Position numbers and translations under genes: made by a program. Below the pieces are notes generated by a model. It worked only from the letters and a program-made list of their open reading frames with translations. It did no database searches and was not told the DNA's origin. This document shows positions 16,834 to 58,919 of a DNA stretch of 64,000 nt, in pieces. This stretch comes from Promethearchaeota archaeon (GTDB lineage Archaea > Asgardarchaeota > Heimdallarchaeia > Hodarchaeales > Hodarchaeaceae). Position 1 is the stretch's first letter. Each line of letters begins with the position of its first letter. The stretch lies in assembly GCA_048938105.1 (NCBI GenBank), contig JBHLMN010000024.1:1-64000 (forward strand). Direction: 5' to 3'.

Positions 16834-16835
16834 AA

Positions 16836-17548: not shown

Positions 17549-17593
17549 TTCCTTTTCAATTCAAAATTCCCCCTCATAACCAAGTGATTCATT

Positions 17594-36849: not shown

Positions 36850-37136
36850 TCTTTCACCTCAAAATTCTCTATGATTATAATTTATTCAATTTGTTACTAT
36901 TAACCCCCACAGCTTATGTATTTAAAAAACCTCCTAAAAATTTGTCGAACAAGTGCATTGAATTTTAATCTTTATTAAATTCAATAAGAAGTTCTAATGA
37001 TCTCTTCTCCTTAGATTCGTTTCTGGATATTTTTATACGGATAATCTGCAAATCACGAGAAAATGACCGTAGGAAGAATTTTTCATGTGAAAAAATCTAT
37101 GTGATATTACCGTAATGTTATGAATTTTATAATTCA

Positions 37137-37694: not shown

Positions 37695-37769
37695 ATCAGT
37701 TTTTACATTAGTCCTCCCATTTCGATGTACCTTGATTTCTAGAAGAATATTAAATAGATCAAAAAGGAA

Positions 37770-38273
37770 TTATCCCGTTAGTCGTGTTTTCCAATCATAT
37801 ATTTTCTCGATGAGTTGTTCCTTTTCTACAGAAGAGATCTCTCTCATATTCTTAATTTGGTTTGCGTACCTTCCCATTTCATGGAATGCTGGATGAAATC
37901 CAACTTCAGCCGATTGCATCACTTGGTCTCGCAAACGGGATAATGATTTAGCTATTTCAGGCCCCTTGGTCATAGTTTGAACCTGACTTAGAAATGAATC
38001 TAATAATCTCCCCGCTTTAGCACTTCCTCCAGAGCTAGGGACTTGTACCGAGGGTGATGGACTTGGTGCTGGAGTGGGTGTTGGTTTAGCTTTTACAACT
38101 TTTTTTGGTGTTGGTTGAGGGGTTGGTACTCCTTCCATAGCGGCGAAAATTTTTTCAAATCTAATAGATATCTTTTCCAGCTTATTTGCAAGAACTTTAG
38201 CAGTTTTAGTGACCAATTCTAGATCTTCTTTAAGCTGTTCAACTTCTTTTTCCTCTGTCATGTTCAAATCCAC
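37770..38273 (-). CDS. Hypothetical protein (coiled coil, Pro-rich linker, helical C-terminal domain)
   Basis: Long ORF with modular composition. Confidence 0.6.
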   Translation of the reverse strand: MDLNMTEEKEVEQLKEDLELVTKTAKVLANKLEKISIRFEKIFAAMEGVPTPQPTPKKVVKAKPTPTPAPSPSPSVQVPSSGGSAKAGRLLDSFLSQVQTMTKGPEIAKSLSRLRDQVMQSAEVGFHPAFHEMGRYANQIKNMREISSVEKEQLIEKIYDWKTRLTG

Positions 38274-38582
38274 TTTTTCTGTATTTTAAACAATATTTCC
38301 TTATTTCTCTTTTTATCTCTTCCGATTTTATGTTAACTCAATCAAAGAATTCTTTTCCTTCTACAATCAGTATTGTAACGAATCTGACAACTTTAAGCTT
38401 TTAAATGAAGCATCATTAAATGTTAAGAATGTAAAATGCCTCTTTAACACTTCAAACACAAGTCTTAATTAGAACGCGAGATCCTTAATTCAATTCCAAC
38501 AGATAAACACTACTATTAATATTATGAGTAATAAAATATCTCCTTAGTAATAGCTATAGGTGAATTGATAGAAGAACCATTT

Positions 38583-39779: not shown

Positions 39780-40056
39780 GTTTTCTAAAGAGCTTATGAT
39801 AATTTTTTCAATATTTCTCATTTTCAAAATTTTTCCAAAATTTGGATCTTGAACTATTTCTTTTAGATTTTATCATAAGAAATGTTTCTAAAAAGCCTCT
39901 AAACTTTATTATTAAGATGAAAGAGAACGAAGAGACGATGAAAAGAGTCTAATATCGTGAATATAAGTTAGAAGGATTTTTTAGCTCCTCTTAGAAAATG
40001 ATTAAAAGTAGAATAATTTTGGTGAATTTTACAAAATAGAAGAATAGGTGTAAAAA

Positions 40057-40998
40057 ATGGCTGGTGAAGGGTCCGGTTATGGAAAGACCATCTTATTTGG
40101 AGAACATTTTGTAGTTTATGGCGTACCTGCGCTTGCATCTGCAATAGGTGACAAAACCGCATGTATTGTAGAATCTAAAGGTGGAAAAGGGTATGAATTG
40201 AATGATGACAGGCCAGAGGTTCCTGGATATAAAGAGAAGAAGCTTGATGAGCAAAAGGTCTCTATTAAGAATGTATTGGCTTTTATGGGAGTCAACCTAG
40301 ATAAAAAGGCCCTGAAGATTACATTCGGGGGAGATCTCGTCTGTGCTAGTGGTGTTGGAGCTTCTGCAGCGAGTTGTGTCTCTCTTGCAAGAGCTATCAA
40401 TGATGAATTCAACCTTGGATGGGAAAATGAGAAAATAAATGCTGCTGCTTATGAAGGTGAAAAAGGATATCATGGAACTCCTAGTGGAATTGATAACACT
40501 GCTTCAACATACGGTGGTTTGGTCTATTTTATCCGAAATCTTGAGGGAGGCCCTAATACAATAGAGACAATTAAACTAGAAAAACCAATTGAATTAGTGA
40601 TTGCAAGTTCAGGAATGACTGCTAACACAGCTGTTGTCGTAGGAGATGTTCGTAAAAAGAAGGAGGAGGATCCTAAGTGGTTTGAGGATATAATTAAAGA
40701 ATATCAAGAAGTGATAAAGGAGGGTCGTGAAGCTTTAGAAAATATGGAATTAGAGCGAGTCGGTCGGCTTATGGATAAAAATCATGAGCTGCTTCAGAAA
40801 GTAACCGTATCAAATGACGTCTTGGACAAAATGGTTAAGCTTGCAAAAGATAACGGGGCTCTAGGAGCTAAACTTACTGGAACTGGACGAGGAGGAAATA
40901 TAATCGCGTTAACTCCTAGTTCTGAACTTCAAGATAAAGTATACAATGCATTAAAAGAAGCGGGATATCCCGCGTGGAAAACATTAATCGGAGTATAA
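40057..40998 (+). CDS. mvk: Mevalonate kinase
   Basis: GKTILFGEHFVVYG, GVGASAA, HGTPSGID, GAKLTGTGRGG. Confidence 0.92.
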   Translation: MAGEGSGYGKTILFGEHFVVYGVPALASAIGDKTACIVESKGGKGYELNDDRPEVPGYKEKKLDEQKVSIKNVLAFMGVNLDKKALKITFGGDLVCASGVGASAASCVSLARAINDEFNLGWENEKINAAAYEGEKGYHGTPSGIDNTASTYGGLVYFIRNLEGGPNTIETIKLEKPIELVIASSGMTANTAVVVGDVRKKKEEDPKWFEDIIKEYQEVIKEGREALENMELERVGRLMDKNHELLQKVTVSNDVLDKMVKLAKDNGALGAKLTGTGRGGNIIALTPSSELQDKVYNALKEAGYPAWKTLIGV

Positions 40999-41027
40999 TC
41001 TATAGTTCATAAGGTGGAAAAAAAGAA

Positions 41028-42335
41028 ATGTATTTTCGGGAATATATAAACAAACTTGAAAAAAACGGAAAAATTACAAGAATCAAGAAAGAAGTTAATA
41101 TAGATATAGAAGCTGCTGCTGTCTTAAAAGCAGCAGAACCTACTCCACTTCTGTTTGAGAATGTGAAGGGATATTCGGATTTTCAGGTTGCAGGTAATGT
41201 TTTTTGTACGAAAGAAAGCATTGCTGATTATTTTGAGATTTCTACGGCACAATTGATTCCTCGACTCACAGCAGCTATTGATAATCGAAGTCCACCAGAG
41301 GAAATAAGTAGTGCTCCTTGTCAAGAAGTTATTATGGATGGTGTTGACCTCGATAAAATTCCAATTCTAAAACATAATGAACGAGACGGTGGTCGATACA
41401 TCTCTTCAGCTGTTGTCGTGACCAAAGATCCAGAATTTGGTCAAAACTTAGATTTTCACCGGGCAATGCAATTCGAGAAAAACAGAATGAGTACTCGGAT
41501 CATAAAGGGTCGGGATTTCTACAAGTTTTTAGAGAAATCAGGTGAAGTAGAAGCAGCTTATTGTGTTGGAAACACCCCTAATATCCTTGTTGCTGCTGCC
41601 ACTTCCGTGAAGACAGGAATTAATGAGCTAGAAATTGCAAATGCCCTTGCAAAAACTGAAGTGATAAAAGCTAGCTCAGTTGATCTTTTAATCCCTGCAG
41701 GATGTGAAGTAGTTTTAGAAGGAAAAGTTTTCATGGCTGATCGTGCATCAGAAGGGCCATTCATCGACTTAACCGAAACATACGACATAGAGCGCGATGA
41801 ACCAGTCTTTGAGGTTAAAAAAATCACTCATAGAAAGAACCCTATATGGCAAGCACTTGTGCCTGGCGCTTTAGAACACAAAGTCCTTATGGGTATGCCA
41901 CGAGAACCCACTATCTTTAAATCTGTGAATGAGGCAGGTGTAAAGTGTCTTGATGTCAATGTAAACCCTGGTGGTTCCTCTTGGCTACATGCCATTGTTA
42001 AAATCGATAAACAAAATGAAGACGATGGAGAAAAGGCTATACGCGCTGCTTTTGCTGGACATAGAAGCTGTAAGCATGTCTTTGTCGTGGATAAAGATAT
42101 TGATATATATAACCCCTTAGAGGTAGAATGGTCAATGGCTACACGCTTTCAGGCTGAAAGAGACTTAGTTGACATTGGAAAGGAGCCAGGGTCAAGCCTA
42201 GACCCAAGCGCAGAACCAGGAACAAAAATCACAAACAAAGTAGGATTCGATTTTACTGCACCACTAGTGACAAAAGGGAAAAGCTTTGCCCGTGCAGAGT
42301 TTCCTGAAGTCGATTTAAAGGAGTATTTAGAATAA
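41028..42335 (+). CDS. UbiD-family decarboxylase (anhydromevalonate phosphate decarboxylase)
   Basis: EGPFIDLT, VDKDIDI, SSLDPS; context with mvk, PMDh, ubiX and fni. Confidence 0.88.
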   Translation: MYFREYINKLEKNGKITRIKKEVNIDIEAAAVLKAAEPTPLLFENVKGYSDFQVAGNVFCTKESIADYFEISTAQLIPRLTAAIDNRSPPEEISSAPCQEVIMDGVDLDKIPILKHNERDGGRYISSAVVVTKDPEFGQNLDFHRAMQFEKNRMSTRIIKGRDFYKFLEKSGEVEAAYCVGNTPNILVAAATSVKTGINELEIANALAKTEVIKASSVDLLIPAGCEVVLEGKVFMADRASEGPFIDLTETYDIERDEPVFEVKKITHRKNPIWQALVPGALEHKVLMGMPREPTIFKSVNEAGVKCLDVNVNPGGSSWLHAIVKIDKQNEDDGEKAIRAAFAGHRSCKHVFVVDKDIDIYNPLEVEWSMATRFQAERDLVDIGKEPGSSLDPSAEPGTKITNKVGFDFTAPLVTKGKSFARAEFPEVDLKEYLE

Positions 42336-44980: not shown

Positions 44981-45066
44981 GGTTGATATGTGATCTTTCT
45001 CACTAAAACAACTCATGTATTGTCCTAAAAACGAATATTAGCATCTTAATAGGAGAAATAGAATTT

Positions 45067-46362
45067 ATGGCACAATCAAAAGCAAATATCCCAAAAGCAA
45101 TATTTCAGGCACAAAAATTAGTCCAAGATGCGCGGTTGTATGATCATCAAGACCAATACCAGAAAGCAATTACTTATTACATGCATGCAACCAAAATATT
45201 CTTAGTACTACTGAAACGATACCCTCAGATACCCCTCCATAAGCAGCATGCTCAAGAGGTTCGACTGTGTCTGCAACGGGTACAACAACTTAAACCAATT
45301 TTAATGAATTCCACACAATCAGCCAATCATCCCAAGACAGTACATATCAAATCAAAAGATGACCAAGAGTATGCTGAATTACGTGAGCGTATCCTTAGAT
45401 GTCGGATCACTCCTAATCCTAGTCTCTCATGGGATGATATAATTGGTCTCGAAGAAGTTATCCACCAGATTCAGGAAACAGTCTTAGTCCCTCTTCAGCA
45501 TCCCGAAATCTGGGAGAGTAGTATCAAACCATCCAGATCAATTCTCTTATTTGGGCCGCCTGGATGTGGGAAAACAAACTTAATTCGGGTACTAGCGGCA
45601 GAAATTGCCCCTATACCTATCTTCAGTCCTCCAGCTGGGATTCTATTATCAAAATGGCATGGGGAAAGCCAGAAAATGATCCGGGCGTTGTATGAAACAG
45701 CTTGGGAACATGCCCCCTCGATCATTTTCATTGATGAATTTGATGGCATCTTTGGGTCAACCAACAATTCCCGAAGAAGAAATGGGGATTCAGAGGCATC
45801 TAGAATAACCATTCAGATCCAAAAGGAGCTACAACAGTTTATGGATGGATTATACACCCCTTCGAGGAATGAAACAGTGACTATTGTCGCCACAAACTTC
45901 CCCCAGCGGTTACAACTTGCTCAATTACGTCGTTTCGATAGGATTCTGTATATTCCACCCCCGTCTCCTTCCGCGATTGTCAAGATTCTTCAGCATTACT
46001 TTCGAAAAGTATCTCATAATCTTGACGGCAATCTTCAATGGTTAGCACATCATGTTGTAAATAGGTATACCCCTGATGAAATACAAAAAATTTGTACTGG
46101 AGCCTATTATCAGGCACTTAGTAGGTCAGACAAGACTAAGCTCCCCCCACAAGTAACTTTGAAGGACGTTGCGCATTGTAAGGTAAGATTAAAACCTTTA
46201 CTTCGATTTAAAGAAACTATTGGGGTGAGTACAATATTGTTTAGGATATGGAATGAGACCTTTGGGAGACCACCAATTGAATATCCAATGCAGCCTTGGG
46301 AAGAAGAAGATGTAAACCCCACTTTGTTGCTTAATCTGCAAAAGGCTCGAGAAAATCGCTAG
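45067..46362 (+). CDS. MIT-domain Vps4-like AAA+ ATPase
   Basis: MIT three-helix N-terminus (ARLYD...YQKAITYY...QRVQQLK), WDDIIGLEE, GPPGCGKT, SKWHGES pore loop, IFIDEFD, ATN..LRRFD. Confidence 0.85.
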   Translation: MAQSKANIPKAIFQAQKLVQDARLYDHQDQYQKAITYYMHATKIFLVLLKRYPQIPLHKQHAQEVRLCLQRVQQLKPILMNSTQSANHPKTVHIKSKDDQEYAELRERILRCRITPNPSLSWDDIIGLEEVIHQIQETVLVPLQHPEIWESSIKPSRSILLFGPPGCGKTNLIRVLAAEIAPIPIFSPPAGILLSKWHGESQKMIRALYETAWEHAPSIIFIDEFDGIFGSTNNSRRRNGDSEASRITIQIQKELQQFMDGLYTPSRNETVTIVATNFPQRLQLAQLRRFDRILYIPPPSPSAIVKILQHYFRKVSHNLDGNLQWLAHHVVNRYTPDEIQKICTGAYYQALSRSDKTKLPPQVTLKDVAHCKVRLKPLLRFKETIGVSTILFRIWNETFGRPPIEYPMQPWEEEDVNPTLLLNLQKARENR

Positions 46363-46373
46363 GGGGAAGGGGA

Positions 46374-49300
46374 ATGTCTACACAGGAAGATCACGATGTT
46401 ATTCTTGCTCAACAAGAAGAAGAAAAGATAGAAGAAGAGGTGGAAGATAATGAAGAAGAAACTAACCTTGAAGAGGATCCTTCAGAGATTGATATTGATG
46501 AGGTGGCTCCAAGAATAGAAGTGGAGGAGCTGCTTGCAGAGCATGAAATGCTTGAACAAGAGTTCGAGGAATTTTTACCTCCTGATACTATTCTTACTTC
46601 TGAAGAGGAAGGAACGGAAGTAGAAGACTTTGATGAGGACATTGATGATAATTCAGCGGATACTATATGTATAGGCCAAGATACATTGGTTCTAGAGGCA
46701 AAATTTGAGGTTCAAGAGGCGGAGGACGAGGAGCTAGAGACTTATGAACTAATAGAAACTGAGCAGGAAATCCAAGACGAAGAGCCAGATTCGTCAGACC
46801 AACAAGAAGTGGACATAAGTCTCGGGAATGACATTTGTGGAGAGGTTGAGGAAGATTCATCAATTTTAGAGGAAGATCAGGAAATTGAGTTTTCCAACAT
46901 CAATCAAAATATAGAGGAACTGCCAATTGAAGTAGAAGAAGCTGAATTAGAAATACATCAATTGGAAGAAGAGCTAGAAGAAGAGCTGATAACAGAATAG
47001 GTCAAGGTTATTGAAGATGAAGGGATCGAGGAATTTGAGGACATAAAACATCTAGAAGAAAGTCAGATAGAAGAAAATGATAATTTTGGTGATACAGATT
47101 GGGAATATGAAACATTAGAGGAGCAAGATCTTTGTAATCAGGAAACACTGGATAGTGATACCACAAATTCTACTTCAATTGAAGCAATGGAACACGAAGA
47201 AACGAAAATTGATCAGGAATTAGAAGAAAATCCATTAATTACTCTTGAATACCCGTTTGCTGAAGAATTAAAAGAGCAAGATAAATATACGCAAGAAATA
47301 ACATGTGATCAGGAATTTGAGGAAATATCCATTAATGAACTTGAAAATCAAACTGAAGACGGTAGTGAGGAACTAGAAGAGCTGGAAAAAACAATTGAAA
47401 TAGATGAGAACGTTGCAACACTTGAAACAGTCGAAATCACAAATGATGTGCAACCAGAAGATGAGAAACAATCTCAACAATCTATTACACTGACAAAAGG
47501 GCATACACTAAGTGATATTGGGAAAACTTCAATCCAGCAATTATTCAATATACTCAATAATCGATCTATAGAAACAAAGTATTCTGAGGATGTTCTTAAA
47601 CCGCGATCCTTTACTCTGACAATCAAAGATGAGGATTTTCACGATTTTTCTCTTAATTCACTAGATACCGAAATAAGCACCTTAGAGAAAATGTTGAAAG
47701 AAGTTGAATCACCACGCTTGTTAACCCAATTTCATCCACAGATAGAGGATGATGTAAAGCAATCTCTTGAGGTTCAAACGTTTCAAAGTATTCATGAACA
47801 TGATAGTTCATTAGAACTTGTTTCTCAAGGCCCCTCACTTCCCGAACCGCCTCCATATGATTTTCAAGCTGAATTGGACGAACTAGAGGAAGAACAGGAT
47901 AGTTTAACAAGAGAACAACTTCTAAAATCGTTTGAAAGGGCGCAATGGACACAAATGACTGCTAATTTAGATTTAGCAAAGCAGAAATTATCTTTCATAA
48001 AAGCATACACATCACATACTCCAAAAGCAGACCCTCCTCAAAAAATGACACAGACCTTTCAGAACAAGCAGATCTCCCGAAATAAAGCAGATACAGAAGA
48101 ACAGATCAAAAAAGAAAAAACTGAATCAAATTTAGAGAAAAAAAATTATTTTAAACCTCTAGAAGAAACACTAATAGAACAAAATATTGAAAGGAAAAGA
48201 CAATCGATAATACAAACTGGGTATAAAGCCATAAAAACTGGAAAACATTCAGATTTGAGAGTGTTTGCAAGAAAGTGGAATGAACACATAACCAGAGGAG
48301 GAAGGCCAACAACTAAAATGTGGGAAATGTATAACAAGATACAGGAGAAGTACGATAAACCAATAGTCTTATACAAAGAAAGTGGAAATAATACCTATCG
48401 AATGAGCATATGTGGAAAATTATTTTCTCAATTAGATTCAGGTAACATATCAGCGAGACAAATTAACAAAATATTTGAATATTGGCAAATTCAAAGTGAT
48501 ATGAAAAAGGGAATTAAACCTTTTTTGGAAGTAACAATAAAAAATCCCACAACTGGAAAAACGGATACGTTTTGGATTCCAAATTCTAAACAAAAGGCAT
48601 GGAACCCATATAAAGCAAAGAATCGTGAGTTTTTCAATATTCGTAGTTCTTCTTGGGCTAAAATCACAGAATTCCTAGCAACTAAGATTCAATTAAATGA
48701 GAAGGACATAAAATTATATAATGAGATTGAGAAATCTCTTAGAAAAAGATACCCAAAACTGGGGATTCAAACAGTTAATGGACCTTTTACGACTTTGGGG
48801 AATCAAAAAGTACTGTTTAAAAATATATATAAGTTGAATTACCCAAAAGACGTTATAGATGAAGCAATTAAACTAGCTTTTTGGAAATACGCTGGTACTC
48901 ATGCTTATAATGATACAAACACTGTTACTTCAAGAAAAGAAATTACACAGATGAGAATAGAATTCTCTAATTTTGGAAATTCAATTCAAAAAAACAAGAT
49001 AACTCAAAGAATATACAACTTGAGTGTGGACGGTTCAGTCTCACATCAGAATTGGACTGATGATCTCGAATCATCAATTAAAAGTTTAGATCCAAATTTT
49101 ATTATATATGAAAATGTTAATGGCGAGATTAATGGAATATCTGCCCCACATCTAGTCAGAAAGTTCAAGGATTTATTATTCTTTAAAGATAAGTATTCTG
49201 TAAAGAGTGCTGGTAGAATGTTCAATAATCTGATAGCATTAGCAGATTACGAACCACCATTAAATTTAGGTACTTATTATTGGAAAAAATTGTTTCCTAA

Positions 49301-50792
49301 AAATACTGATCTTCATCAATTAGGAATTCCAGAAGCTTATCAAACAACGTTTATATATCGTGATACAACCTCATCGGGGGCAGTTGGTAGGGCAAGATGG
49401 ATGAATGACTTTCGAAATGAATTTTTGATGCCATTAACTGATTGGCTTAAAGTTTCCGAACTAAAAGACTTTTCTAAGCAAATTACCATTCAAAATCCTA
49501 GTACAGGAAAGAAATATAGAAAACGGTTCAATAATTTGAGTGCATATTTGAAATTTCAAGCAGGACTTGGTGAATGGAAAGATGAAAGATGGCAAGGTGT
49601 GTATAATAAAATATACGTTCTAAAATATGATCTTGAGCACATTTTGGCTATTACTAAATATGTCAGTGAATCAGTTCAGTTACCTGGAAGAGATAATAGA
49701 ACTGGAAAAGATAAGGAGAAGTTATTGGAATTCTTTCAAACGACTAATGCGGTAAAAATCATAAATATTGTACCTGAATCTAAAAATTTCAAATTCATTG
49801 TAAGTTTGAGTTCTAGAAAACAAGCATTAATGAAATTCTATAATAATCTTACTAAAAATAGTTCAGTTGGGGCAAAAATTGTCCAAGCACACCTTACATC
49901 TGTTCTGGAGAGTTGCATACCATTAACTATAGATCCATGGACAATACAAAAAGCAGTAAATCACAAACACTTAATAAAGGCACCTGAAAGTCTTGCGGAA
50001 TTATTAACTGAAGAAGGTGACGGCCCGATAAATCCATTCTGTTCTGGCCTTTTTATGGATTCGAATTTTAGAGAAATTTGTAATACCGTTCATGATATCA
50101 ATTTTAACATGAAATTTCTTCAGTATCCTAATACTGAGAGAGATTATATCATAACCCAATCAATGAAATCAAGGAAAATGGCTGATACTTATGGAGAATC
50201 TTTTACTGCAGCAAGTATTCCTGATGTTGTAACAAGTTATCAAAAAAATAGTGGTTCTACCGAATTGTTATTTATAAAAGTTGTAAGTAATAATATTTTT
50301 AATCATTTAGAATCTGATATTAGTGAAATATTAAAGACTAATTATGATTCAAAAGATCCTTTTCGAATTTTCACTGCATTAGTTTTTTTAAAATCAGATC
50401 TGAATACTCTCCCACTGAATTCTACAAAATACAATGAATTAATGCTTCTACTTCAAAATCAAAATGCAGATGGATTAATTAATATTGAAATACCAGATTT
50501 ACAAACAAAAGGATTAAATCGTTTTGGTGAAATATGGGCATCTCTCAAAAATGAATACATAACAAATGAAATATATGAGGAATCCAGAAATGAATTTTTG
50601 AAAGATCCTGATTCCTTTAAAAATCAATTAATCGAGGAAGTAATGAAAAAAATCAATAGTTTCCAAAAACTCAATCCTGTTGACCGTAAAACGGTAGAAG
50701 AAGGGCTTGAAATAATAGATTTTGAAGCAACTACAAGAACAGAGTTTATTATGAACACTCTAATGAATTATTTCAGTCTTGCTTTACTTTGA
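46374..50792 (+). CDS. Giant acidic-N-terminus protein (1472 codons) interrupted by one in-frame TAG at 46998-47000; nuclease-like C-terminal motifs
   Basis: ORFs 46374-47000 and 47187-50792 share a frame; the 62 codons between them are open and equally Glu/Asp-rich. Confidence 0.7.
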
Positions 50793-50910
50793 ATAAAAGG
50801 GAGAGAAGTAGTTTATATATACCAATCAATAAATAGATACATTAATTTCTTATTTGTATATTATTTTCATAAGCGAAAATAAAGAGAATTGAACAACTGG
50901 AGGAACGAAA

Positions 50911-52092
50911 ATGGAATTAACCCCCGAAGAGCAAGATATGGCTGCTGGGAAGTATGGAAAGGCTACACAAACAGCGATGGAAATATTAGTCTCACTTGGC
51001 GAGATTTATGGAGCTAAACGAATGATAGACATAACTTCGGTTCAAATTGCTGGTGTAAGTTATGCAAACTTAAATGAACCTGGCCTAGAATGGTTGGAAG
51101 AAATGGCTGAAGATGGAAAAGTACGGGTATTTACCACACTTAATCCAGCAGGTATGGATCTTGAAGAATGGAAAAAATTAGCCATCAGTGAGGAGTTTGC
51201 TGAAAATCAAATCCGGGTAGTAGAAGCATTCGGAAAATTAGGAGTTATAACAACTTGCAGCTGTACTCCATATCTTTACGGGAATCTACCTCATTTTGGC
51301 CAACACATTGCTTGGTCTGAGAGTAGTGCTGTGTGTTATGCAAACTCAGTATTAGGTGCACGAACGAATCGAGAAGGTGGACCAAGTGCTCTTAGTGCAG
51401 CTCTTGTCGGAAGAACACCTGAATATGGTTTTCACTTAGATGAAAACAGAAAACCAGAAGTAAAAGTAGATGTGAAAACAAAACTTGAAGGAACATTTCA
51501 ATTTGGAGCTTTAGGAAAAGTCTTAGGGGATCGTCTCGGTAAAAAGATTTCTTATATTACCGGAATTCCCAAAGCTTCGGTTGAGGAGCTAAAATCATTT
51601 TGTGCATCATATGCAACATATGGGGGAGTAGCATTATTCCATATGGAAGGCATTACGCCTGATCGAGTTGACACAATTCCTTCTGAAACCACAGAAGTCA
51701 CTGAAGATGATATGAAAAGCGCTATTGCAGATCTTACTGAAGATACAGAGATTGATTTCATAAGTTTAGGATGTCCACATGCTTCTCTAGCGGAATTGGA
51801 ATATATTGCTAAAAAATTAGAGAATAAGAAAGTTAATCCTAACAAAGAGATATGGATAACAACAGCTCGACCTACTAAACAAATCGCAGATCGTATGGGT
51901 TTTACTAAAATGATTGAAGATTCCGGAGCAAAAGTTGCTGCAGATACCTGCTGTGTTGTAGCTCCCATTAAAGGACGATTCCATGGATTAGCATCAGACT
52001 CAGCTAAAATGTGCTATTATGGATCTGGTAGGAATAAATTCTCAGTCAAACTGATGTCAGTAGATGAATGTATAGAGGAGGCCTTAAAATGA
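50911..52092 (+). CDS. Phosphomevalonate dehydratase large subunit (AcnX catalytic domain)
   Basis: AGVSY, TTLNPAGMD, CSCTPY, WSESSA, GARTNREGG, LGCPHAS, DTC, SDSAK. Confidence 0.92.
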   Translation: MELTPEEQDMAAGKYGKATQTAMEILVSLGEIYGAKRMIDITSVQIAGVSYANLNEPGLEWLEEMAEDGKVRVFTTLNPAGMDLEEWKKLAISEEFAENQIRVVEAFGKLGVITTCSCTPYLYGNLPHFGQHIAWSESSAVCYANSVLGARTNREGGPSALSAALVGRTPEYGFHLDENRKPEVKVDVKTKLEGTFQFGALGKVLGDRLGKKISYITGIPKASVEELKSFCASYATYGGVALFHMEGITPDRVDTIPSETTEVTEDDMKSAIADLTEDTEIDFISLGCPHASLAELEYIAKKLENKKVNPNKEIWITTARPTKQIADRMGFTKMIEDSGAKVAADTCCVVAPIKGRFHGLASDSAKMCYYGSGRNKFSVKLMSVDECIEEALK

Positions 52093-52478
52093 AGCTAACA
52101 GGTAGAAAAATTTACCACGGAAAGACTGAAGGGGAAGCTCTAGTTACTAAAGACAGTATCTCGTTTTATGGCGGAGTAGACCCAGAAACAGGGATAGTAG
52201 TCGAAAAGGGTCATGAATTAGAAGGTGTGAACACTACAGATAAAATACTTGTGTTTCCAACAGGTAAAGGGTCAACGGTTGGCTCCTATGTAATCTATCA
52301 AATGGCAAAAACAGGAAAAGGGCCTAAAGCCCTTATCCTTCAAGAATGCGAAGCAATTGTAGCTGTTGGTTGCATAATCTCATCGATCCCTTGTGTGGAT
52401 CAGATTGATGTAACCCAGATCAAAACAGGAATGAATCTGACCGTGGATGGCGATAAAGGCGAAGTTGTGATAAAATAA
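52089..52478 (+). CDS. Phosphomevalonate dehydratase small subunit (AcnX swivel domain, DUF126)
   Basis: ISFYGGVDPETG, GKGSTVGSY; ATG at 52089 next to the large-subunit stop. Confidence 0.92.
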   Translation: MKLTGRKIYHGKTEGEALVTKDSISFYGGVDPETGIVVEKGHELEGVNTTDKILVFPTGKGSTVGSYVIYQMAKTGKGPKALILQECEAIVAVGCIISSIPCVDQIDVTQIKTGMNLTVDGDKGEVVIK

Positions 52479-52527: not shown

Positions 52528-55500
52528 TTAGCCCTTTTCTTCTTTATCACTCCATAATACATCTAACACCCGACAAATATCTATCAATCTCCAATTTTCA
52601 TACGTTAGAGCTTTTCCTTTCATAAGACCCAGAGTACTTCTATTTGTTGATGGAAAAATATCTCGTAATATATTCTTAAAATCATCTGAATCAGAGAATT
52701 CTTTCATTAGTCTTATTACTTCGATGTATTTTGCGCTCTTGTTAATATTTTTGTGTTCAATTTCAATAATTTTGTTTTCCCAGAATGATAGCCTGTTCTC
52801 CCGAAACAACGCTTCTGGAATACTTGTCTTAAAGATCGAACGATTTAATAAATCATCATCCCACTTTCCTCTATATTTTGTCCCTATTAAAAGTCGCCTT
52901 AATCCCTCCGTTGTGAATATTTCAGTAATTTCATTAGGTCTTTTTATTTGTAAATCAAACTCCAAATTGTTTCTCTTTCTTGGATGGGTTTTTTTAAGCC
53001 CTATAAGGTTCATCTCCTTTATATCAACTGATCTTTCAACAAATAAACACCTTAATTCTTGCAATTCTCTCATTCTAAATAAATAAATAGACGATTTACC
53101 AAGTAGAGCATTATAATAAATACTTCCCCCTTGTCTCACTCCCTTTACGGGAATAAATGTTTTGGGATCATCTTGTGTAAAGCTCTTATTAAAACTTGTA
53201 ATATTGGGATTGAAATGAAAAAATAGAAACATCCCAAATAAAGTTTGACCATGATTCATTTGATCCCAATTCAGTCCTTTTCTAGCATTTGAAATTAATA
53301 ATTTAGAGGAAGGAGAAAAAGAACCCTTAACTCTCCTATTCGCTTTTTGTCTTTCTATTCTTACAGAGGGTCTTTTAATCTCCCATAACGTAGCTTTATA
53401 ATCATAATCCCCATAAGCTTCTGAAGATGGGGAAATTACCATCCCATCAACACCCTGACCGTGTTCTCCTCCCAAATATAAACCATATACATATGAAAAC
53501 AACGAAATTTCTCGTGGTGTTCTAGAATGAAAAACAAAGTATTTTTTATTTGAATTTCTAGACATTACCTTTTTTTTTTGACCAGTGTTACCCCAATTTA
53601 CGCTAGAACCTTTTTTAAACCATTTGGATGCCATAGCAACTGATTTTTCCTCTGGGAATCCAATAATTCTGAATAATGAATAAATTGTTGGAATATAAGC
53701 TGCCCTAAGTCTCAAGTCATTTGTCATCCTTTTATTCGAATGCCACTTCCTAAATAATTTGCTACCATGATTAACATCTTCAGGAGCAGCTGCATATTCA
53801 AAAACATTGATTTTTAATTGGTTAATATTCCGTAATGTGTCAATTGGGTTATTGAAATATAATCTTGCACTTTCAGGGAAAACATCTTTTGAAATTCTAG
53901 GAATTCCACTGAGTTCTCTAGACCTCCACCGTTCACCTACATCAATCTGTGTGGTTAAATTGTTAAAAGAACATAAAAACATCGATGTTAATGTGACTGT
54001 TTTCATCAATATATCTGTGTGTGCTGATTCAGGAAAATGGTTTAATGGTTTACTTGGAGAGAGCCATAAATTTCTTCCAATATTATAAATCTCTTGAGTA
54101 ATAGCCAAAAATCTTGGATCATTTGCATCCATCAGATAATCGACAGCTAAAGATGCAATGCGTGATACAACATTTACAGATAACTCTAAGTTAGCCTTTG
54201 ATAAAGCATTTTTCTCTGCCTTTCCAAACTGTAGTGCACCTCTATCATGCCTTCCTTCAATATCTGCGAATAATTCACCAAATTTTGTTTTAATTTTTTC
54301 CCTCATATTTCGCCTATCTATTCTCCCATCAATTATCACGCTTGGTGGTTTAATATTTAAAACGTCAAGAAATCCACCCTTTTTTGTAATTTCTTTGATC
54401 TTTTCTTTCTCTAATAGTCTTATAAGATTAATCATTGAAAGAAATCTTTCAGTAGTTCTTATTTCCAATAATGAATCTGTTATTTCTTTGAATTTTGTAA
54501 AACTGAATGTCTCAAATACTTTATTGAGTAAATGATTATTAACAAAACTCTTGATTGACATATTGGGGGAGATATTGATGTTTGGTTGAATAAATTCATT
54601 ATGATAAGAACTAAACTCTAAAGACTTTGAAAACTTATAAAGTGTTGATAAATTAGTATCAACGATAGAACGTATTCCTGTTGAACCTTTAGTTGTACCT
54701 ATTAACACTTTAATATCAATAAAAGGAGATTTAAGTATGTATTCTAATCTCTCTAGATATTTCTCATTTTCTAGCGTGAGTTTTCTTTGAGAATCAAAAA
54801 CTCGAATCAACTCTGATCTAACATCGTTGTGAATTGGTGATAAAACACCATTAATTCCTAAATCTTCCAAACTAGTTATTACTTCGCCAATTGAAGATTT
54901 TTCTGTATCCACCAAAAGAAACAATCGAATGATATCATATTCCCTTTTAACCAGTTCATTTAATTCCCAATTTTTCAATAGATGAACATTGTCGATATGT
55001 CTTTCTCTTCTCACTGATATCATTGTTAAAGCTTCATTGATATTCTTGGTTGCCTCATCTATAAGGTTGAAAGTCTGTTGAAAACTCATCAGATCATTAT
55101 TTTCAAGATCTTCGTAGAAGTTAACACTAAATTTGTTGTTAAATTCTTTTTCTCTTAATACAACCTCTATTGCAATTCTTTTTGATCTATTTACACTCTT
55201 TGAGTCGGAATTCGTGAGTTTTGTGAACAGTTGTCCTTCAAGACTCTCCATGTCATTAAAATTAAAGAAGAGCGTCTTTACGGAATCTTCTCTTGATTGA
55301 TTCTTTTGTAATAGCTTAAACAACTGTTGATCTTTGTTTTTCATTTTGATTTTCTGTTCTTTTTCAAGTTGTTCAACAGATTTCTCGTTAGCAGCTTGTT
55401 GTGAATTTTCAAGTGACACAAGTTGTTGTAGTGTTCTTTCCTTTATGGACTCTTGGAACTGTGTTTCGTTTTCAGCAGACACGGGCTGTTGGGATATGTG

Positions 55501-55659
55501 GTTAGAACGTTCGATATTCCCATTTAGATCTTGCTGGATTAGTGTGGTTTCTTCTCTCTTTTGGAGATCAAGGTTTACCTCCTGACACCTCTCAATCTCT
55601 TTGATTTTTATTGTTTCTTTTGTTGGCTTTGAATAATGCTCTTTCTCTATTTTTGATTC
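52528..55659 (-). CDS. Orphan alternative C-terminal cassette of the giant protein, with a PD-(D/E)xK-like motif
   Basis: Frame is open upstream of GTG 55482 up to the junction motif ESKIEKEHYSKPTKETIKIKEIER (55659-55588); GQGVDG...LWEIK. Confidence 0.65.
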   Translation of the reverse strand, partial: ESKIEKEHYSKPTKETIKIKEIERCQEVNLDLQKREETTLIQQDLNGNIERSNHISQQPVSAENETQFQESIKERTLQQLVSLENSQQAANEKSVEQLEKEQKIKMKNKDQQLFKLLQKNQSREDSVKTLFFNFNDMESLEGQLFTKLTNSDSKSVNRSKRIAIEVVLREKEFNNKFSVNFYEDLENNDLMSFQQTFNLIDEATKNINEALTMISVRRERHIDNVHLLKNWELNELVKREYDIIRLFLLVDTEKSSIGEVITSLEDLGINGVLSPIHNDVRSELIRVFDSQRKLTLENEKYLERLEYILKSPFIDIKVLIGTTKGSTGIRSIVDTNLSTLYKFSKSLEFSSYHNEFIQPNINISPNMSIKSFVNNHLLNKVFETFSFTKFKEITDSLLEIRTTERFLSMINLIRLLEKEKIKEITKKGGFLDVLNIKPPSVIIDGRIDRRNMREKIKTKFGELFADIEGRHDRGALQFGKAEKNALSKANLELSVNVVSRIASLAVDYLMDANDPRFLAITQEIYNIGRNLWLSPSKPLNHFPESAHTDILMKTVTLTSMFLCSFNNLTTQIDVGERWRSRELSGIPRISKDVFPESARLYFNNPIDTLRNINQLKINVFEYAAAPEDVNHGSKLFRKWHSNKRMTNDLRLRAAYIPTIYSLFRIIGFPEEKSVAMASKWFKKGSSVNWGNTGQKKKVMSRNSNKKYFVFHSRTPREISLFSYVYGLYLGGEHGQGVDGMVISPSSEAYGDYDYKATLWEIKRPSVRIERQKANRRVKGSFSPSSKLLISNARKGLNWDQMNHGQTLFGMFLFFHFNPNITSFNKSFTQDDPKTFIPVKGVRQGGSIYYNALLGKSSIYLFRMRELQELRCLFVERSVDIKEMNLIGLKKTHPRKRNNLEFDLQIKRPNEITEIFTTEGLRRLLIGTKYRGKWDDDLLNRSIFKTSIPEALFRENRLSFWENKIIEIEHKNINKSAKYIEVIRLMKEFSDSDDFKNILRDIFPSTNRSTLGLMKGKALTYENWRLIDICRVLDVLWSDKEEKG

Positions 55660-55660
55660 A

Positions 55661-56024
55661 CGCCCATTTTCCTGAATGTTTTTACTACACGAAGTTGGTT
55701 TTTCCCGAATTCCTCACTGATGGCTAATTTTTTTCCATTCTTCAAGATCCATTCTGTACCAAAGTCAATAGACTAAGATTTTCCAGCAGGATTAAGAATG
55801 GTAAAAATTCGTACTTTACCATCAATAGCCATTTCAGCTAACCATTCTAGGCCTGGTTCATTTAAGTTTGCATAACTTACACCTGCAATCTGAACCGAAG
55901 TTATGTCTATCAAGCGCTTAGCACCGTATATCTCACCAAGCGCGACTAATATTTCCATAGCTTTTTGTGTGGCTTTTCCATATTTCCCTGCTGCCATATC
56001 TTGTTCTTCAGGAGTTTGTTCCAT
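55661..56024 (-). pseudogene. Inverted 5' fragment of the PMDh large subunit (~110 codons) with a 29-nt insertion and +1 frameshift
   Basis: MEQTPEEQDMAAGKYGKATQ...NPAG [insert] MDLEEWKK/LAISEEFGKNQLRVVKTFRKMGV matches the 50911 gene. Confidence 0.9.
55752..55780 (-). other. Candidate BHB intron in a protein-coding sequence
   Basis: CTGG-AA|A-ATCTTAGTC-TATT-GACTTTGGT-ACAG-AA|T; excision restores GCT GGA ATG GAT (AGMD). Confidence 0.6.
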
Positions 56025-56262
56025 TTTCTTTATCTACTTATTTTCTTGAATCTATTTTATTTAATTTAAGTTGGAGAAAATGACGAATTAATTTATTTAT
56101 CTATTGGTATTTTCTGATAGTGTAAAGAAATATTAGCTTTAATGACCCTTTTCTAAAAGGAGTATATACAAAAATTATATCTAGAATGATGTTTACAATA
56201 GAATAACGAAATAAATATTAAAATAAAAAGGAATACTACGTTATAGTGACATTAGTGTAATA

Positions 56263-56367
56263 ATAATAAGCAAAATTCCCTGTGTAGATCAAATTGATAC
56301 AACTAAAATAACAACTGGATCGAAAATAGTCCTAGATGCCAGCACTGGCGTGGTTGAAGTAGAATAG
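56263..56367 (+). pseudogene. 3' remnant of a PMDh small subunit gene
   Basis: IISKIPCVDQIDTTKITTGSKIVLDASTGVVEVE*, 18/34 identical to the C-terminus of the 52089 protein; directly upstream of ubiX. Confidence 0.85.
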
Positions 56368-56459
56368 ATCGGAAATTTCATCTTCAACTAATCACCATTT
56401 CCTCCTTTTTCACAAGATAATAGGAAAAGCTGGTAATATTATTGAAGGTGTGAAATCTT

Positions 56460-57032
56460 GTGAAGCCAAAGAAAATAATTGTCGGGTTAACTGGTGCTTC
56501 TGGAATACAATACGGAATCGAAGTTATCAAAGCCTTGGTAGAAAGTAAAATCGAAACTCATGTTATTTTGAGTAAATGGGCAGAATTTGTACTTCAAGAT
56601 GAAGTGGGTATTAAAAGCTCAGAAATTAAAAAAATGGCTTTTCAAGCATATAATAGTAAAGAGATGAATGCACCTCTTTCTAGTAGCTCAACATTGATAG
56701 ATGGAATGGTAGTTATACCAGCTACAGTGAAAACAGTAAGTAATATCGCTACTGCGAATACTGGAAATTTGATCTCCCGAGCAGCAGACATAATGCTGAA
56801 AATGCGACGACCGTTGATCATTGGAATCCGTGAGACTCCTCTAAGCCCACCTTGCCTTCATAATCTGTCCCAGTTAGCTATTTATGGGGCAATTATTCTT
56901 CCGTTAAGTCCAGGATTCTATCATAAACCTCAAAATATTCAGGATTTGTTTGATTTTATAACTGGGAAAGTTTTAGATTGTTTAAATGTTCCAAATGAAA
57001 AATATCGACGTTGGAACAAAAAGGAGCCTTAA
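56460..57032 (+). CDS. ubiX: Flavin prenyltransferase UbiX
   Basis: GLTGASG, NLISRAAD, RETPL, PGFYHKP. Confidence 0.92.
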   Translation: MKPKKIIVGLTGASGIQYGIEVIKALVESKIETHVILSKWAEFVLQDEVGIKSSEIKKMAFQAYNSKEMNAPLSSSSTLIDGMVVIPATVKTVSNIATANTGNLISRAADIMLKMRRPLIIGIRETPLSPPCLHNLSQLAIYGAIILPLSPGFYHKPQNIQDLFDFITGKVLDCLNVPNEKYRRWNKKEP

Positions 57033-57038
57033 AAAGAC

Positions 57039-58172
57039 ATGGAAACGGAGTATAAGGTTGTTAAAGATATCCTTGAGAAAAAGGCCAATTTAACCTCTGA
57101 CAGAAAGTTAGCGCATATCCAAATCTGCTTGGAACACGACGTTCAAGCCCGAAACACTACAACAGGTCTGGAAGACATTTCTTTTGTTCATCATGCAACA
57201 ACTGATTTGAATCTTGATGAAATTGATTTATCGGTCAAGATTTTTAATAAAAAACTCTCTGTTCCCTTAATCATTTCAGGGATGACTGGAGGCCATGATT
57301 TTGCCCATAAGCTGAATGCTTTCTTATCTCAAGCAGTTAATCAAACCAATATTGGTATGGGAGTCGGTAGTCAGCGGGCAGCGTTAGAAAATGAAGAAGT
57401 GAAAGAATCTTTTAACGTTGTCAGAGAACATGCTCCCGACTCATTAATTATTGGAAATATCGGAGCAGGCCAAATAGCTCAAGGGCTTACTAATGTTCAA
57501 TTCCAAGAAATCATCAATATGATTAACGCTGATGCTGTTGCGGTGCATTTTAATCCCCTTCAGGAGGCGATCCAACCTGAAGGTGACACCCAATTAAGAG
57601 GCCTGCATGAAAAAATTGAACAAATAATACACGAACATTCAGTCCCCCTAATTGCCAAGGAGGTGGGCTCAGGGTTTAGTCTTCACGATATTAAGCAAGC
57701 CAAGAAGATGGGGTTCAAAGCAATTGATATTCAAGGAGCTGGAGGAACCTCGTGGGCTGGAGTGGAAGCCATTCGGACACTTATACCGAAGTATAAGGAC
57801 GCTGGTGAAGTTTTCTGGGATTGGGGAGTCCAAACAGCTCTCAGTACAATATTAGCTACAAAGAATTTTGAGGGAATCATCATTGGTTCGGGTGGGATAA
57901 GAAATGGATTAGATATTGCGAAATTAATTGCCTTGGGAGCAGATGCAGCAGGGATGGCTATTCCATTTTTATTTGCAGTTCAGAAACACTCTACAGAGGC
58001 AGTTGTGCAGAAAATTGAAGAGATAACCTATCAGCTAAAATTGGCTTGTTTTCTTACTGGTTCTCAGAATGTCTTAGATTTAAAAAAAGCCCCTCTTGTA
58101 ATTACTGGGAAAACAGCCGAACTTCTGAAACTCCATGGAGTCGATCCCTCAACCTATTATTCTAGAGAATAA
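57039..58172 (+). CDS. fni: Type 2 isopentenyl-diphosphate delta-isomerase
   Basis: RKLAHI, SGMTGG, GVGSQR, HFNPLQE..QPEGD, KEVGSG, GAGGTSW. Confidence 0.95.
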   Translation: METEYKVVKDILEKKANLTSDRKLAHIQICLEHDVQARNTTTGLEDISFVHHATTDLNLDEIDLSVKIFNKKLSVPLIISGMTGGHDFAHKLNAFLSQAVNQTNIGMGVGSQRAALENEEVKESFNVVREHAPDSLIIGNIGAGQIAQGLTNVQFQEIINMINADAVAVHFNPLQEAIQPEGDTQLRGLHEKIEQIIHEHSVPLIAKEVGSGFSLHDIKQAKKMGFKAIDIQGAGGTSWAGVEAIRTLIPKYKDAGEVFWDWGVQTALSTILATKNFEGIIIGSGGIRNGLDIAKLIALGADAAGMAIPFLFAVQKHSTEAVVQKIEEITYQLKLACFLTGSQNVLDLKKAPLVITGKTAELLKLHGVDPSTYYSRE

Positions 58173-58919
58173 TAGCCAAAACAATCCTTGCTTGCGTAAC
58201 TACAAATCTAATTTATTCCTACATCTTATCTTATGTTTATGAGTATTAAATCCATCTATGATTTATTACCAGACGAATTAGGTTTCGAAAAGGAATCGCG
58301 AATGTCTATTAAACAAATTCCTCTCTTTTTGTCATAAATCCCGAATATAATTTATTGATGGTTTTTAATTCAGAAAATACATAATTAAAAATGGTTCCAA
58401 AGGTTTTTATAGATCTTATAACCTTTAATCAGCCATTAATACTGTATATCAGTAAGCTGGTCTTTTTCCCATGTATTTTCTACTCGATCTCGATTTTCAA
58501 TATTTTAAGTGAAGTTAACTATAAAAAATAAATTATTTATGACTATACTTTCCTTATAACCGCATTAAAATAGTTTAACATCAAAATTAAACTATATTCA
58601 TATATGAAATATAAATATTTTATAGTAATTTGTTACTATTATAGTTGTATTATTTATATATATTAGGTTTAATATATACAAAAAGTTAATAAAGAAACTC
58701 TGGAATATCTACTTGTATTGGAAAATCAATATTTCTCTTATGCTTAATTCTTAGAGAAAAAATCTCGTAGAAAAGAGATACAGTTCTAATTTCCTAAGAA
58801 ATTATCATTTTGATTAGCATTTCTTTTCTTAACAAAATAAATAGCAAATAAAAAACAATTTATTTACTAAATTAGCTTTTAAGGAATAAGAATTATTTAA
58901 AACTAACAGGAGGCTTCAT

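Follow-up and report, generated by a model that had tools for sequence, protein, structure and literature searches.

A C-terminal reading frame lacking its native start, and a linker motif it shares with a giant gene, at a rearranged Hodarchaeales locus

Several systems join one constant N-terminus to alternative C-termini by site-specific inversion, among them the phage Mu G segment with Gin, the P1 C segment with Cin, the R64 shufflon with Rci and the phase-variable hsdS loci. Polymorphic toxin loci (cdiA-CT/cdiI, rhs-CT) reportedly carry orphan C-terminal modules, as Zhang and colleagues are said to have described in 2012. A staggered-break model, reportedly put forward by Ranz and colleagues in 2007 for Drosophila inversions, accounts for inverted duplications at breakpoints. 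Homology-facilitated illegitimate recombination is a further process that operates in prokaryotes. The locus studied here belongs to the Hodarchaeales, the closest known archaeal relatives of eukaryotes, and lies in the window, the whole 64,000-nt stretch of DNA that was analysed. It contains a giant gene ending in a C-terminal body that we call CT1 and, on the opposite strand, a second C-terminal frame, CT2.

The locus resembles each of these systems in part. As in the Gin, Cin, Rci and hsdS systems, a constant 5' part lies outside two opposed alternative 3' parts, with in-frame inverted repeats at the junctions; unlike in those systems, the repeats differ by 29%, a neighbouring recombinase gene is absent and the would-be segment holds essential mevalonate-pathway genes. 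As in cdiA-CT and rhs-CT loci, conserved N-terminal parts and unrelated C-terminal parts are joined at a short conserved sequence, and an alternative C-terminus with neither promoter nor start lies near the main gene, exchange taking place by recombination at the shared sequence. Unlike those loci, the family here has no immunity gene, secretion signal or delivery domain, its bodies are ~900 aa long, and housekeeping genes stand between the main gene and the extra copy, which has the opposite orientation. The locus also resembles staggered-break inversions: one block runs opposite to its counterpart in a close relative, each end of this block carries 370 nt of the breakpoint gene, one inverted with respect to the other, another, older pair of the same sort occurs in the relative, and the joints show short similarity. 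Unlike in such inversions, the second breakpoint lacks the simple predicted structure, and an additional replacement and lateral transfer must be invoked.

A shared motif in a mosaic family of large genes

The giant gene and the two motif copies are laid out as follows.

45063..48108, plus strand: segment orthologous to another locus in the relative's genome (L019: MIT-AAA ATPase and 5' part of P0008; blastn 80% over 3074 nt), comprising a Vps4-like gene and the giant's acidic N_A module
48109..50792, plus strand: P0004/P0006-type part of the giant, with linker tail, Y motif and CT1 body
48123..48194, plus strand: motif copy A, of the Y type, which immediately precedes the CT1 body (SIIQTGYKAIKTGKH...) of the giant gene and also occurs in P0004 and P0006
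55588..55659, minus strand: motif copy B (ESKIEKEHYSKP...IER), at the 5' end of the CT2 frame, characterized by genome scans, shuffles and comparison with P0004 and P0006

The original prediction had reported a gapless match between the two motif copies, and its coordinates and counts proved exact (51/72 nt, 12/24 aa). The copies are inverted relative to each other and in frame within both ORFs, and a self-comparison for repeats recovered them as inverted repeat I3 (73 nt, 71%). When both strands of the whole 5.85-Mb genome were scanned with each 72-mer as query, the only window with at least 46 matches was the other copy; the next-best window reached fewer than 44 matches with the CT2 copy as query and 45 with the giant's. 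A six-frame BLOSUM62 scan of the genome scored the pair at 61 vs 40 for the runner-up window, and 300 local codon shuffles of both ORFs gave a best 72-nt window of 41.5 ± 1.2 (maximum 47) against the observed 51. The likeness was also said to end with the motif, and BLASTP aligned no further part of the two proteins significantly.

In the orthologues P0004 and P0006 the motif likewise sits immediately ahead of the CT1 body. Copy B shares 15/24 residues with the P0004 motif and 47/54 nt with the P0006 motif DNA (L017); the resident giant's motif is no nearer to it than that of a distant orthologue. From these comparisons, the 24-residue motif is native to the giant family. It corresponds to a linker unit that we term Y, ESKIEKE.YSKPLEETI..(V/I)ER, and a related unit, X, ends ..(I/R)(E/R)RDQEV. 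Copy B combines the two: its first ~36–54 nt are Y-type, that is, giant-family linker, and its last ~20 nt (EIER, running on into CQEV) are X-type and native to CT2-type genes. The X unit (RDQEV) closes the region common to P0001 and P0004 (P0001 residues 1–230 vs P0004 residues 71–270, E 8e-31), and residues 12–120 of the window's CT2 align with residues 110–222 of P0006 (E 7e-14). Joints in the family seem to fall in a low-complexity linker made of related repeat units.

The family as a whole appears to be mosaic, with a few acidic, repeat-rich N-terminal modules (N_A, N_B) combined with unrelated large C-terminal bodies: CT1, CT2, at least two further unnamed ones and, in addition, one composed of HTH repeats and LAGLIDADG. 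At least four kinds of body, the HTH and LAGLIDADG one among them, are headed by N_A, and N_B is also found at the head of another, unrelated body in genome G003. The proteins are 1,000–1,500 aa long, soluble and acidic and have no partner gene; linkage to a MIT-AAA ATPase is seen in two genomes. Searches with CT1 and CT2 against Pfam, NCBIfam, PADLOC and PDB sequences gave no hit, and no description of the giant/CT2 family was found in the literature. The giant gene is itself mosaic, since its L019 homology ends 14 nt ahead of the motif; its homology to P0006 begins at 48111, and it is 78% identical to P0004 through CT1. Its N-terminus contains an in-frame TAG.

The CT2 frame and its missing head

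Two features define the second C-terminal frame.

52528..55587, minus strand: CT2, consisting of an N-region after the X unit (about 55587–55300) and a ~930-aa body, with orthologues P0001 (78%) and P0002 (50%)
55714..55716, minus strand: the TGA that opens the CT2 frame, the sole stop between CT2 and the ATG (55752) of the second part of an adjoining fragment of the gene for phosphomevalonate dehydratase (PMDh)

The CT2 frame is intact and has its native stop, without a native start. It had been claimed to lack an in-frame ATG and a ribosome-binding site, and we agree: after the TGA at 55716–55714 the first ATG, GTG or TTG is GTG 55482, and no Shine-Dalgarno-like sequence precedes any in-frame start in the first ~280 codons. 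By contrast, the PMDh large-subunit gene has GGAGG. The ATG at 55752 falls in the CT2 frame because of an extra A in the PMDh fragment.

Comparison with relatives indicates what is missing. The gene orthologous to CT2 in GCA_016840285.1 (78% aa) shows CT2 to be truncated at its 5' end. The first ~190 codons of that gene equal the N-terminal module standing before the CT1 body in P0004 at the same ubiD-ubiX locus. At the relative's locus, L016, the CT2 ORF extends 5' to an ATG at 9791 and is collinear with P0004 residues 1–192 (70%, tblastn E 9e-80); this orthologue has an early in-frame stop, and its body is nonetheless conserved. Because one N-terminal module heads both CT1- and CT2-type genes, the exchange of C-termini on common N-termini has truly happened over evolutionary time. 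Contrary to a refuting condition set with the original prediction, full-length homologues start not at the position of GTG 55482 but ~200 or more codons further upstream, and they are linked to the giant family. The N_B module is absent from the whole genome (99% complete). The CT2 start codon and promoter are also missing; where they would stand there are ~36–60 nt of linker of the giant type and an inverted, 370-nt pseudo-copy made from the 5' end of PMDh. The description of this ORF as a displaced cassette without native start and N-terminus is thus upheld.

CT2 has a dN/dS of 0.32 and has evolved as fast as the intact orthologue (46 vs 47 unique changes in an equal-rate test), although the selection signal may predate the truncation. 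CT2 appears to be the body of a rare, soluble protein of about 1,100–1,200 aa found only in Hodarchaeales; family-level statements are thin because the known set comprises just three genes and two fragments. An exhaustive phmmer search of 1.84 billion representatives found nothing beyond two near-identical fragments, a JGI metagenome scan with the CT2 alignment found no relative, a scan for exact matches to the motif pattern returned none, and a scan of GTDB genomes gave only the already known G017 locus. A 1,200-aa ORF upstream of CT2 in G017 was considered as a giant homologue and dismissed, as it shows no similarity. The AlphaFold2 model of the CT2 body, built on a 4-sequence alignment, was unusable (mean pLDDT 33.8).

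Inversion and breakpoint duplication at the PMDh genes

Upstream of copy B, the locus consists of PMDh-derived sequence in inverted repeat with an intact gene.

50904..51245, plus strand: other arm of the inverted repeat, at the 5' end of the intact, fused gene for the PMDh large subunit (50911–52092; repeats I1, I2, I7)
55660..56031, minus strand: pseudo-copy of the PMDh (AcnX) large-subunit 5' end (Pfam AcnX E 3.5e-27), collinear with L016 14732–15384
56032..56274, minus strand: promoter region ahead of the PMDh fragment; the corresponding stretch before PMDh in L016 is collinear with it
56275..56367, plus strand: stub of 31 codons from the 3' end of the PMDh small subunit (IPCVDQID...), which L016 carries at the matching position

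An abrupt switch to PMDh-derived sequence had been noted here, and the PMDh 5'-end homology (56031–55660) indeed ends one base before the motif. The fragment contains an intact 83-aa N-terminal ORF (56024–55773), a 29-nt insert (55782–55754) and a second part that holds the first 31 codons with one additional A in an A-run (55734–55728). Against PF04412 it scores 95.6 bits over profile positions 1–82 of 400 only, well short of full length. Because its second part ends after 31 codons and is frameshifted, the fragment is a pseudogene. The inverted repeat spans 370 nt at 78–84% identity.

Relative to L016, the block is inverted: L016 10393–15121 corresponds to window 55612–50892 in inverted orientation, and L016 14732–15384 to window 55658–56297 in direct orientation, with breakpoint sequence duplicated in inverted orientation. 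On this alignment, the inverted PMDh pseudo-copy is best interpreted as an inversion scar with breakpoint duplication, and the small-subunit stub as the scar of an older rearrangement. Synonymous divergence from L016 is 0.36 for CT2 and 0.25 for the PMDh fragment (based on only 56 synonymous sites), vs 0.65–1.4 for flanking genes (n=10), the mevalonate-cluster genes among them ranging over 0.65–1.1. Since CT2 and the PMDh fragment show ~3 times less synonymous divergence than the ten flanking genes, lateral exchange with the relative's lineage is indicated. The mevalonate operon between ubiD and ubiX is thus a hotspot of recurrent inversions, duplications and lateral exchange.

Two other proposals were set aside. 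An origin of the inverted block by tandem duplication or circular permutation of a unit comprising motif, CT1, spacer and PMDh 5' end would explain the joint between PMDh and motif, but the fragment is preceded by the PMDh upstream region of L016 type and the PMDh-S stub instead of the CT1-PMDh spacer. Recent gene conversion was suggested by 41 nt of perfect match between the PMDh copies; this sign was not robust, as G017 is also nearly identical there.

Interpretation of the locus and its alternatives

We consider it probable (roughly 0.7) that the motif is a true evolutionary recombination joint and the ORF a displaced, headless CT2 tail left by inversion and lateral exchange. The relative's CT2 is a full gene that N_B heads; here N_B, start codon and promoter have been lost. 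A short Y-unit patch was presumably joined to CT2's own X unit by homeologous recombination with a giant-type gene. The block running from PMDh through PMDh-S to CT2 has been inverted, plausibly through a staggered break, with a PMDh 5' copy staying behind in the original orientation and duplicating the breakpoint. The block of CT2 plus fragment was probably exchanged laterally with the relative's lineage, as the synonymous divergence suggests. The PMDh promoter, which has been kept, could drive transcription of CT2, with translation beginning inside the frame. This history is not simple, however: a single staggered inversion predicts a plus-strand motif abutting the PMDh start, whereas 2.7 kb of CT1 separates the two. 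Alternatively, the Y patch could be filler that was copied from a template during one complex event, and not what is left of an earlier chimera between N-terminus and CT2; no such chimera was found in any database searched (5.8 billion and 1.84 billion sequences).

Our results support a qualified version of the original prediction that the motif is a breakpoint for C-terminal swapping. The motif does lie at genuine joints, with CT1 and CT2 on homologous N-terminal modules across genomes, and a crossover within the inverted copies yields, as proposed, an in-frame fusion of the N-terminus to CT2; what the results do not support is a working cassette-switching device. Nor does a dedicated cassette boundary set the 5' edge of copy B, which is defined by the PMDh inversion breakpoint. 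The breakpoints, located to within a few nucleotides, show how a large orphan-protein family diversifies in Hodarchaeales, with whole C-terminal bodies swapped onto shared N-terminal modules by recombination in a repeat-built linker. They also warn that an arrangement strikingly like a cassette may be a relic of earlier rearrangements and need not be a functioning switch. The junctions are concrete and testable by long-read and transcript mapping.

The strongest alternative, to which we give somewhat less than even odds, agrees with this scar history and differs solely on present-day function. It holds that CT2 is a live, N-terminally shortened gene under a captured PMDh promoter, starting at GTG 55482, at another internal start or by read-through of the TGA at 55716–55714, with the motif region as leader only. 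Consistent with this, the 3.1-kb frame is open and shows the constraint and unaccelerated rate given above, the PMDh upstream region and 83-aa ORF are kept and conserved, ATG 55752 shares the CT2 frame one stop away, and the L016 orthologue has kept its body behind an early stop. Against it stand the missing Shine-Dalgarno-like sequences and the possibility that the truncation is recent and the selection signal older. In addition, the fragment P0014 (91% identical), on a short metagenome contig, lies directly behind an abutting 209-aa ORF; should this ORF represent the portion of CT2 ahead of the fragment, the gene would be frameshifted there.

It is quite improbable that the locus is an active switch of the shufflon or Mu G-segment type, in which recombination at the motif alternately fuses the expressed acidic N-terminus to CT1 or CT2 and leaves the other silent. 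The geometry fits, as the copies are inverted and in frame, CT2 is startless, and N-terminus and promoter lie outside the segment, although the giant's N-terminus carries its TAG; moreover, CT2 is intact across 1,060 codons under the same constraint, and the locus has inverted repeatedly in related genomes. However, the motif copies are only 71% identical with exact runs of at most 8–9 nt, and they have not been homogenized, since they are no closer to each other than to the orthologue's motif. No serine or tyrosine recombinase is encoded on contig C46, the genome's PF00239 and PF00589 matches all lying on other contigs; with repeats this divergent, an active inversion switch is therefore not supported. 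An inversion would also place essential PMDh genes inside the invertible segment and CT1 behind a pseudogene, and the fusion protein is absent from the sequence collections named above; public collections hold a single arrangement of this genome. A Hodarchaeales inversion system that is recombinase-independent or trans-acting, swapping ~900-aa bodies on a constant acidic N-terminus linked to the Vps4-like MIT-AAA ATPase, with Y and X units as crossover sites and the CT2 ORF as the silent alternative, would be a comparably long shot.

Slimmer still is the chance that CT2 is an orphan toxin cassette of a CdiA-CT or Rhs type polymorphic toxin system awaiting recombination into the main gene. A constant N-terminus does carry variable C-termini at a conserved motif, found directly before CT1 in the window's giant, P0004 and P0006 and before CT2 here, with a headless copy downstream, and one family member (P0011) ends in an HTH plus LAGLIDADG endonuclease domain. 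Yet no immunity-like gene follows CT1, CT2 or P0008, the C-terminal modules checked: PMDh comes next after CT1, the gene 50 nt beyond CT2 is the convergent PMDh-S, and P0008 is followed by isocitrate dehydrogenase. Signal peptides and TM segments are also lacking (no hydrophobic 19-mer above 1.35 on the Kyte-Doolittle scale), and the N-terminal parts are up to 41% Asp+Glu in the first 200 residues and contain no Pfam domain. The bodies, at 850–1,000 aa, have no toxin, PADLOC, Pfam or NCBIfam match.

Finally, chance likeness between two Lys/Glu-rich, low-complexity stretches, suggested by the K/E-rich linkers around both copies and a pairwise BLASTP E-value of merely 0.026, is ruled out by the genome-wide nucleotide and protein scans and local codon shuffles, which put the match far beyond background, and copy B matches the orthologues' motifs still better.

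Motif homology and the probable crossover within it

The ORF under study, CT2, lies among genes for phosphomevalonate dehydratase (PMDh, AcnX) and an acidic giant protein:

45067-46362, plus: Vps4/CdvC-like MIT-AAA ATPase
46374-50792, plus: acidic 'giant' frame, interrupted by a TAG at 46998-47000
50911-52092, plus: PMDh/AcnX large subunit
52068-52478, plus: PMDh/AcnX small subunit (PMDh-S)
52528-55713, minus: CT2
56031-55660, minus: piece from the 5' end of the PMDh large-subunit gene
from 56460, plus: UbiX-like flavoprotein gene
from 57039, plus: type-2 IPP isomerase

The original prediction held that CT2 begins at a 24-residue motif (55659-55588, minus) shared with the giant (48123-48194, plus), and its counts are borne out: the inverted copies agree, ungapped and in frame, at 51/72 nt and 12/24 residues. 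Each 72-mer has the other as its only partner with at least 46 matches on either strand of the 5.85-Mb genome, the pair scores 61 in a six-frame BLOSUM62 scan (next best, 40), and 300 local codon shuffles gave only 41.5 ± 1.2 matches (maximum 47) against the 51 observed; the similarity is therefore real homology. As also proposed, BLASTP of the giant against the CT2 protein found no other common segment, and upstream the PMDh homology stops at base 55660, which directly precedes the motif.

In the closest giant orthologues, P0004 (78% identical to the window giant through its C-terminal body, CT1) and P0006, the motif directly precedes the conserved CT1 start (..ERKRQSIIQ.G..A.KTGK). The CT2 copy shares 15/24 residues with P0004, and its first 54 nt match P0006 DNA at 47 positions and the resident giant at 40, compared with 44 for the resident copy against P0006. 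The three are thus star-like descendants of one linker element, the Y unit, and the present giant gene is not the recent source of the CT2 motif. The motif is absent from CT2 orthologues (best scores elsewhere, 20 and 33). The end of the CT2 copy (..EIER into CQEV) matches not the Y unit but a related X unit (VIERDQEV in P0006, DIRRDQEV in the CT2 gene of L016, a locus in the closest relative, GCA_016840285.1), and the two units resemble each other as Y.K.(L/T).ET...(I/V)ER. A Y-to-X crossover probably lies within the 24 residues.

A mosaic family of heads and tails

Across all collections searched, full-length CT2 is known only from the window, from P0001 (GCA_016840285.1, locus L016; 78% identical to the window CT2) and from P0002 (genome G017; 50% identical; 1,069 aa, and equipped with both an ATG and an SD-like sequence). 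Searches with the family revealed neither a recognisable domain nor a TM segment or signal peptide. P0014, on a 1.8-kb contig of JGI metagenome 3300042731, is a 91%-identical fragment (residues 640-983) that immediately follows a 209-aa ORF; should this ORF prove to be the upstream portion of CT2, the gene would carry a frameshift at that point.

The window CT2 frame indeed has no ATG, GTG or TTG upstream of GTG 55482, and no in-frame start is preceded by an SD-like sequence. Homologues do not, however, start at that GTG free of any link to the giant family. In L016 the frame extends 5' of the annotated GTG to ATG 9791, which has an SD-like sequence, and the extension is collinear with P0004 residues 1-192 (70% identity, tblastn E 9e-80). 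P0001 matches P0004 (BLASTP E 8e-31), with homology stopping at RDQEV, the point where the window's native CT2 sequence starts, and window CT2 residues 12-120 match P0006 residues 110-222 (E 7e-14). These matches indicate that a single N-terminal module, N_B, is joined to CT1 in P0004 and P0006 but to CT2 in L016. The N_B-headed gene sits downstream of ubiD in the P0004 contig, L016 and L017 (the P0006 locus), and N_B also heads an unrelated body in another genome, G003. Within L016 9791-10001, an in-frame TAA (9926-9928) falls at codon 46 of N_B, and annotated P0001 begins at a downstream GTG.

A second module, N_A (..LPEPPPYDFQAELDELEEEQ..LAKQKL), likewise heads several bodies. In the window giant it is joined to CT1 and in P0008 to a CT1 paralogue; P0009, P0010 and P0012 share a third body, and in P0011 HTH repeats with LAGLIDADG follow. 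Residues 640-1050 of P0011, three HTH domains and a LAGLIDADG_2 endonuclease domain, form the family's only C-terminal body with a recognisable fold.

The window giant itself is chimeric. Window 45063-48108 shares 80% identity with the MIT-AAA and P0008 locus of the L016 genome, a separate site adjoining isocitrate dehydrogenase; that homology gives way to P0006 homology 14 nt short of the motif. At L019 (1697-6739) in that genome, the MIT-AAA ATPase and P0008 adjoin isocitrate dehydrogenase and ATP-citrate-lyase-like genes. The isocitrate dehydrogenase neighbourhood of the window's genome (contig C41, about 207151-213934) has no P0008-type match, and N_A is confined to the mevalonate locus there, which suggests a translocation. 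On the P0004 and P0006 contigs, the N_B-headed giant has no such ATPase beside it. TAG 46998-47000, which splits off a 208-aa acidic ORF from the giant's remainder, stands where the orthologous L019 codon is CAG. The TAG represents a nonsense mutation or an unusual TAG reading, not a natural gene boundary. The G017 orthologue is continuous.

Rearrangement of the mevalonate locus

Mapping L016 to the window by blastn gave four blocks:

L016 1-8918 = window 35100-42326, collinear
L016 10393-15121 (CT2 from codon ~130, PMDh-S, PMDh) = window 55612-50892, inverted
L016 14732-15384 (PMDh 5' end and its upstream region) = window 55658-56297, direct
L016 17873-19727 = window 56449-58273

Because the L016 PMDh 5' end matches in both orientations, the inverted block carries 370 nt of PMDh at each end (78-84% identical). 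The minus-strand copy retains the L016-type upstream region, an ancestral 29-nt insert and a +1 frameshift, and adjoins a 31-codon PMDh-S stub (56275-56367) that L016 also has. L016 holds an older inverted duplication (13398-13590 versus 15552-15365, 72% identical) that flanks the PMDh operon and contains the CT2 3' end, a spacer and the PMDh-S 3' end; with the window's stub, this pair implies that the locus has undergone at least two separate inversion events. N_B was found nowhere in the window's genome (99% complete).

Inverting an L016-type arrangement by staggered breaks would yield the exact right-hand order of CT2, motif, PMDh 5' end and upstream region. Such an inversion also predicts a plus-strand motif next to the PMDh start, but CT1 and a 111-nt spacer intervene, so at least one further replacement is required. 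CT1 and the spacer also intervene in the P0004 contig, which carries the giant, PMDh, PMDh-S and ubiX as an uninterrupted series. L016 further differs in having, between PMDh and ubiX, an adenine-deaminase-like gene (15663-17603; no blastn match in the window) and, elsewhere, a first MVK-like GHMP kinase gene (5408-6418; the window has only a 32%-identical paralogue).

Locus geometry alone supports an active DNA-inversion switch acting through the two inverted motif copies. Several findings speak against such a switch: the repeats are 29% diverged with no homogenisation, a recombinase search on the window's contig was negative, the segment would enclose essential genes, and the databases searched hold no fusion protein. 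The arrangement looks like the Mu G-segment or a shufflon but lacks near-identical sites and a recombinase; its way of working resembles orphan-module evolution in polymorphic toxin genes, although the family has no immunity gene, delivery domain or identified toxin. In both comparisons it is defining features that are missing. Of the proposed breakpoint and displaced cassette, the recombination joint and the lost head stand; a working switch is not supported. CT2 is best described as a displaced tail caught at a rearrangement hotspot within the mevalonate operon, and the CT2/giant family as a new archaeal form, cytoplasmic in type, of mosaic genes built from heads and tails.

Age and coding state of the CT2 block

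Relative to L016, dS is 0.65-1.4 for ten flanking or intervening genes (including PMDh-C, PMDh-S, ubiD, ubiX and idi2) and 0.82 for the intact PMDh 5' end, versus 0.36 for CT2 (625 synonymous sites) and 0.25 for the PMDh fragment (only 56). The block's common ancestor with the L016 lineage is thus younger than that of the surrounding chromosome, pointing to probable lateral exchange of CT2 plus fragment with that lineage.

CT2 is open across 1,060 codons, with dN/dS of 0.32 against L016 and nearly equal unique changes (46 in the window, 47 in L016; outgroup G017), which is compatible with continued function. Since the 83-aa ORF of the PMDh fragment is likewise little degraded, the truncation may be recent and the selection signal older than it. 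Any expression would depend on the surviving PMDh promoter together with an internal start. An extra A in the A-run 55734-55728 places ATG 55752, in the second part of the PMDh fragment, in the CT2 frame, with a single TGA (55716-55714) between it and CT2; removing the 29-nt insert would also bring the 83-aa PMDh-N ORF into that frame.

Inserts of 29-39 nt with an in-frame stop occupy the same codon (NPAG|MD) of the PMDh large-subunit gene in the window fragment (55754-55782, minus), L016 (about 14826-14860, minus) and G017 (L003, about 940-975, plus). The P0004 contig has a similarly split large subunit (101 + 312 aa), and the insert is precisely missing from L017 and the intact gene of the window. 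The frame is restored when the insert is taken out. The gene is either split or interrupted by a small mRNA intron. The exon flanks pair as AUCC/GGAU, with an outer helix in which U-A has changed to C-G; fold z-scores range from -2.4 to -2.9.
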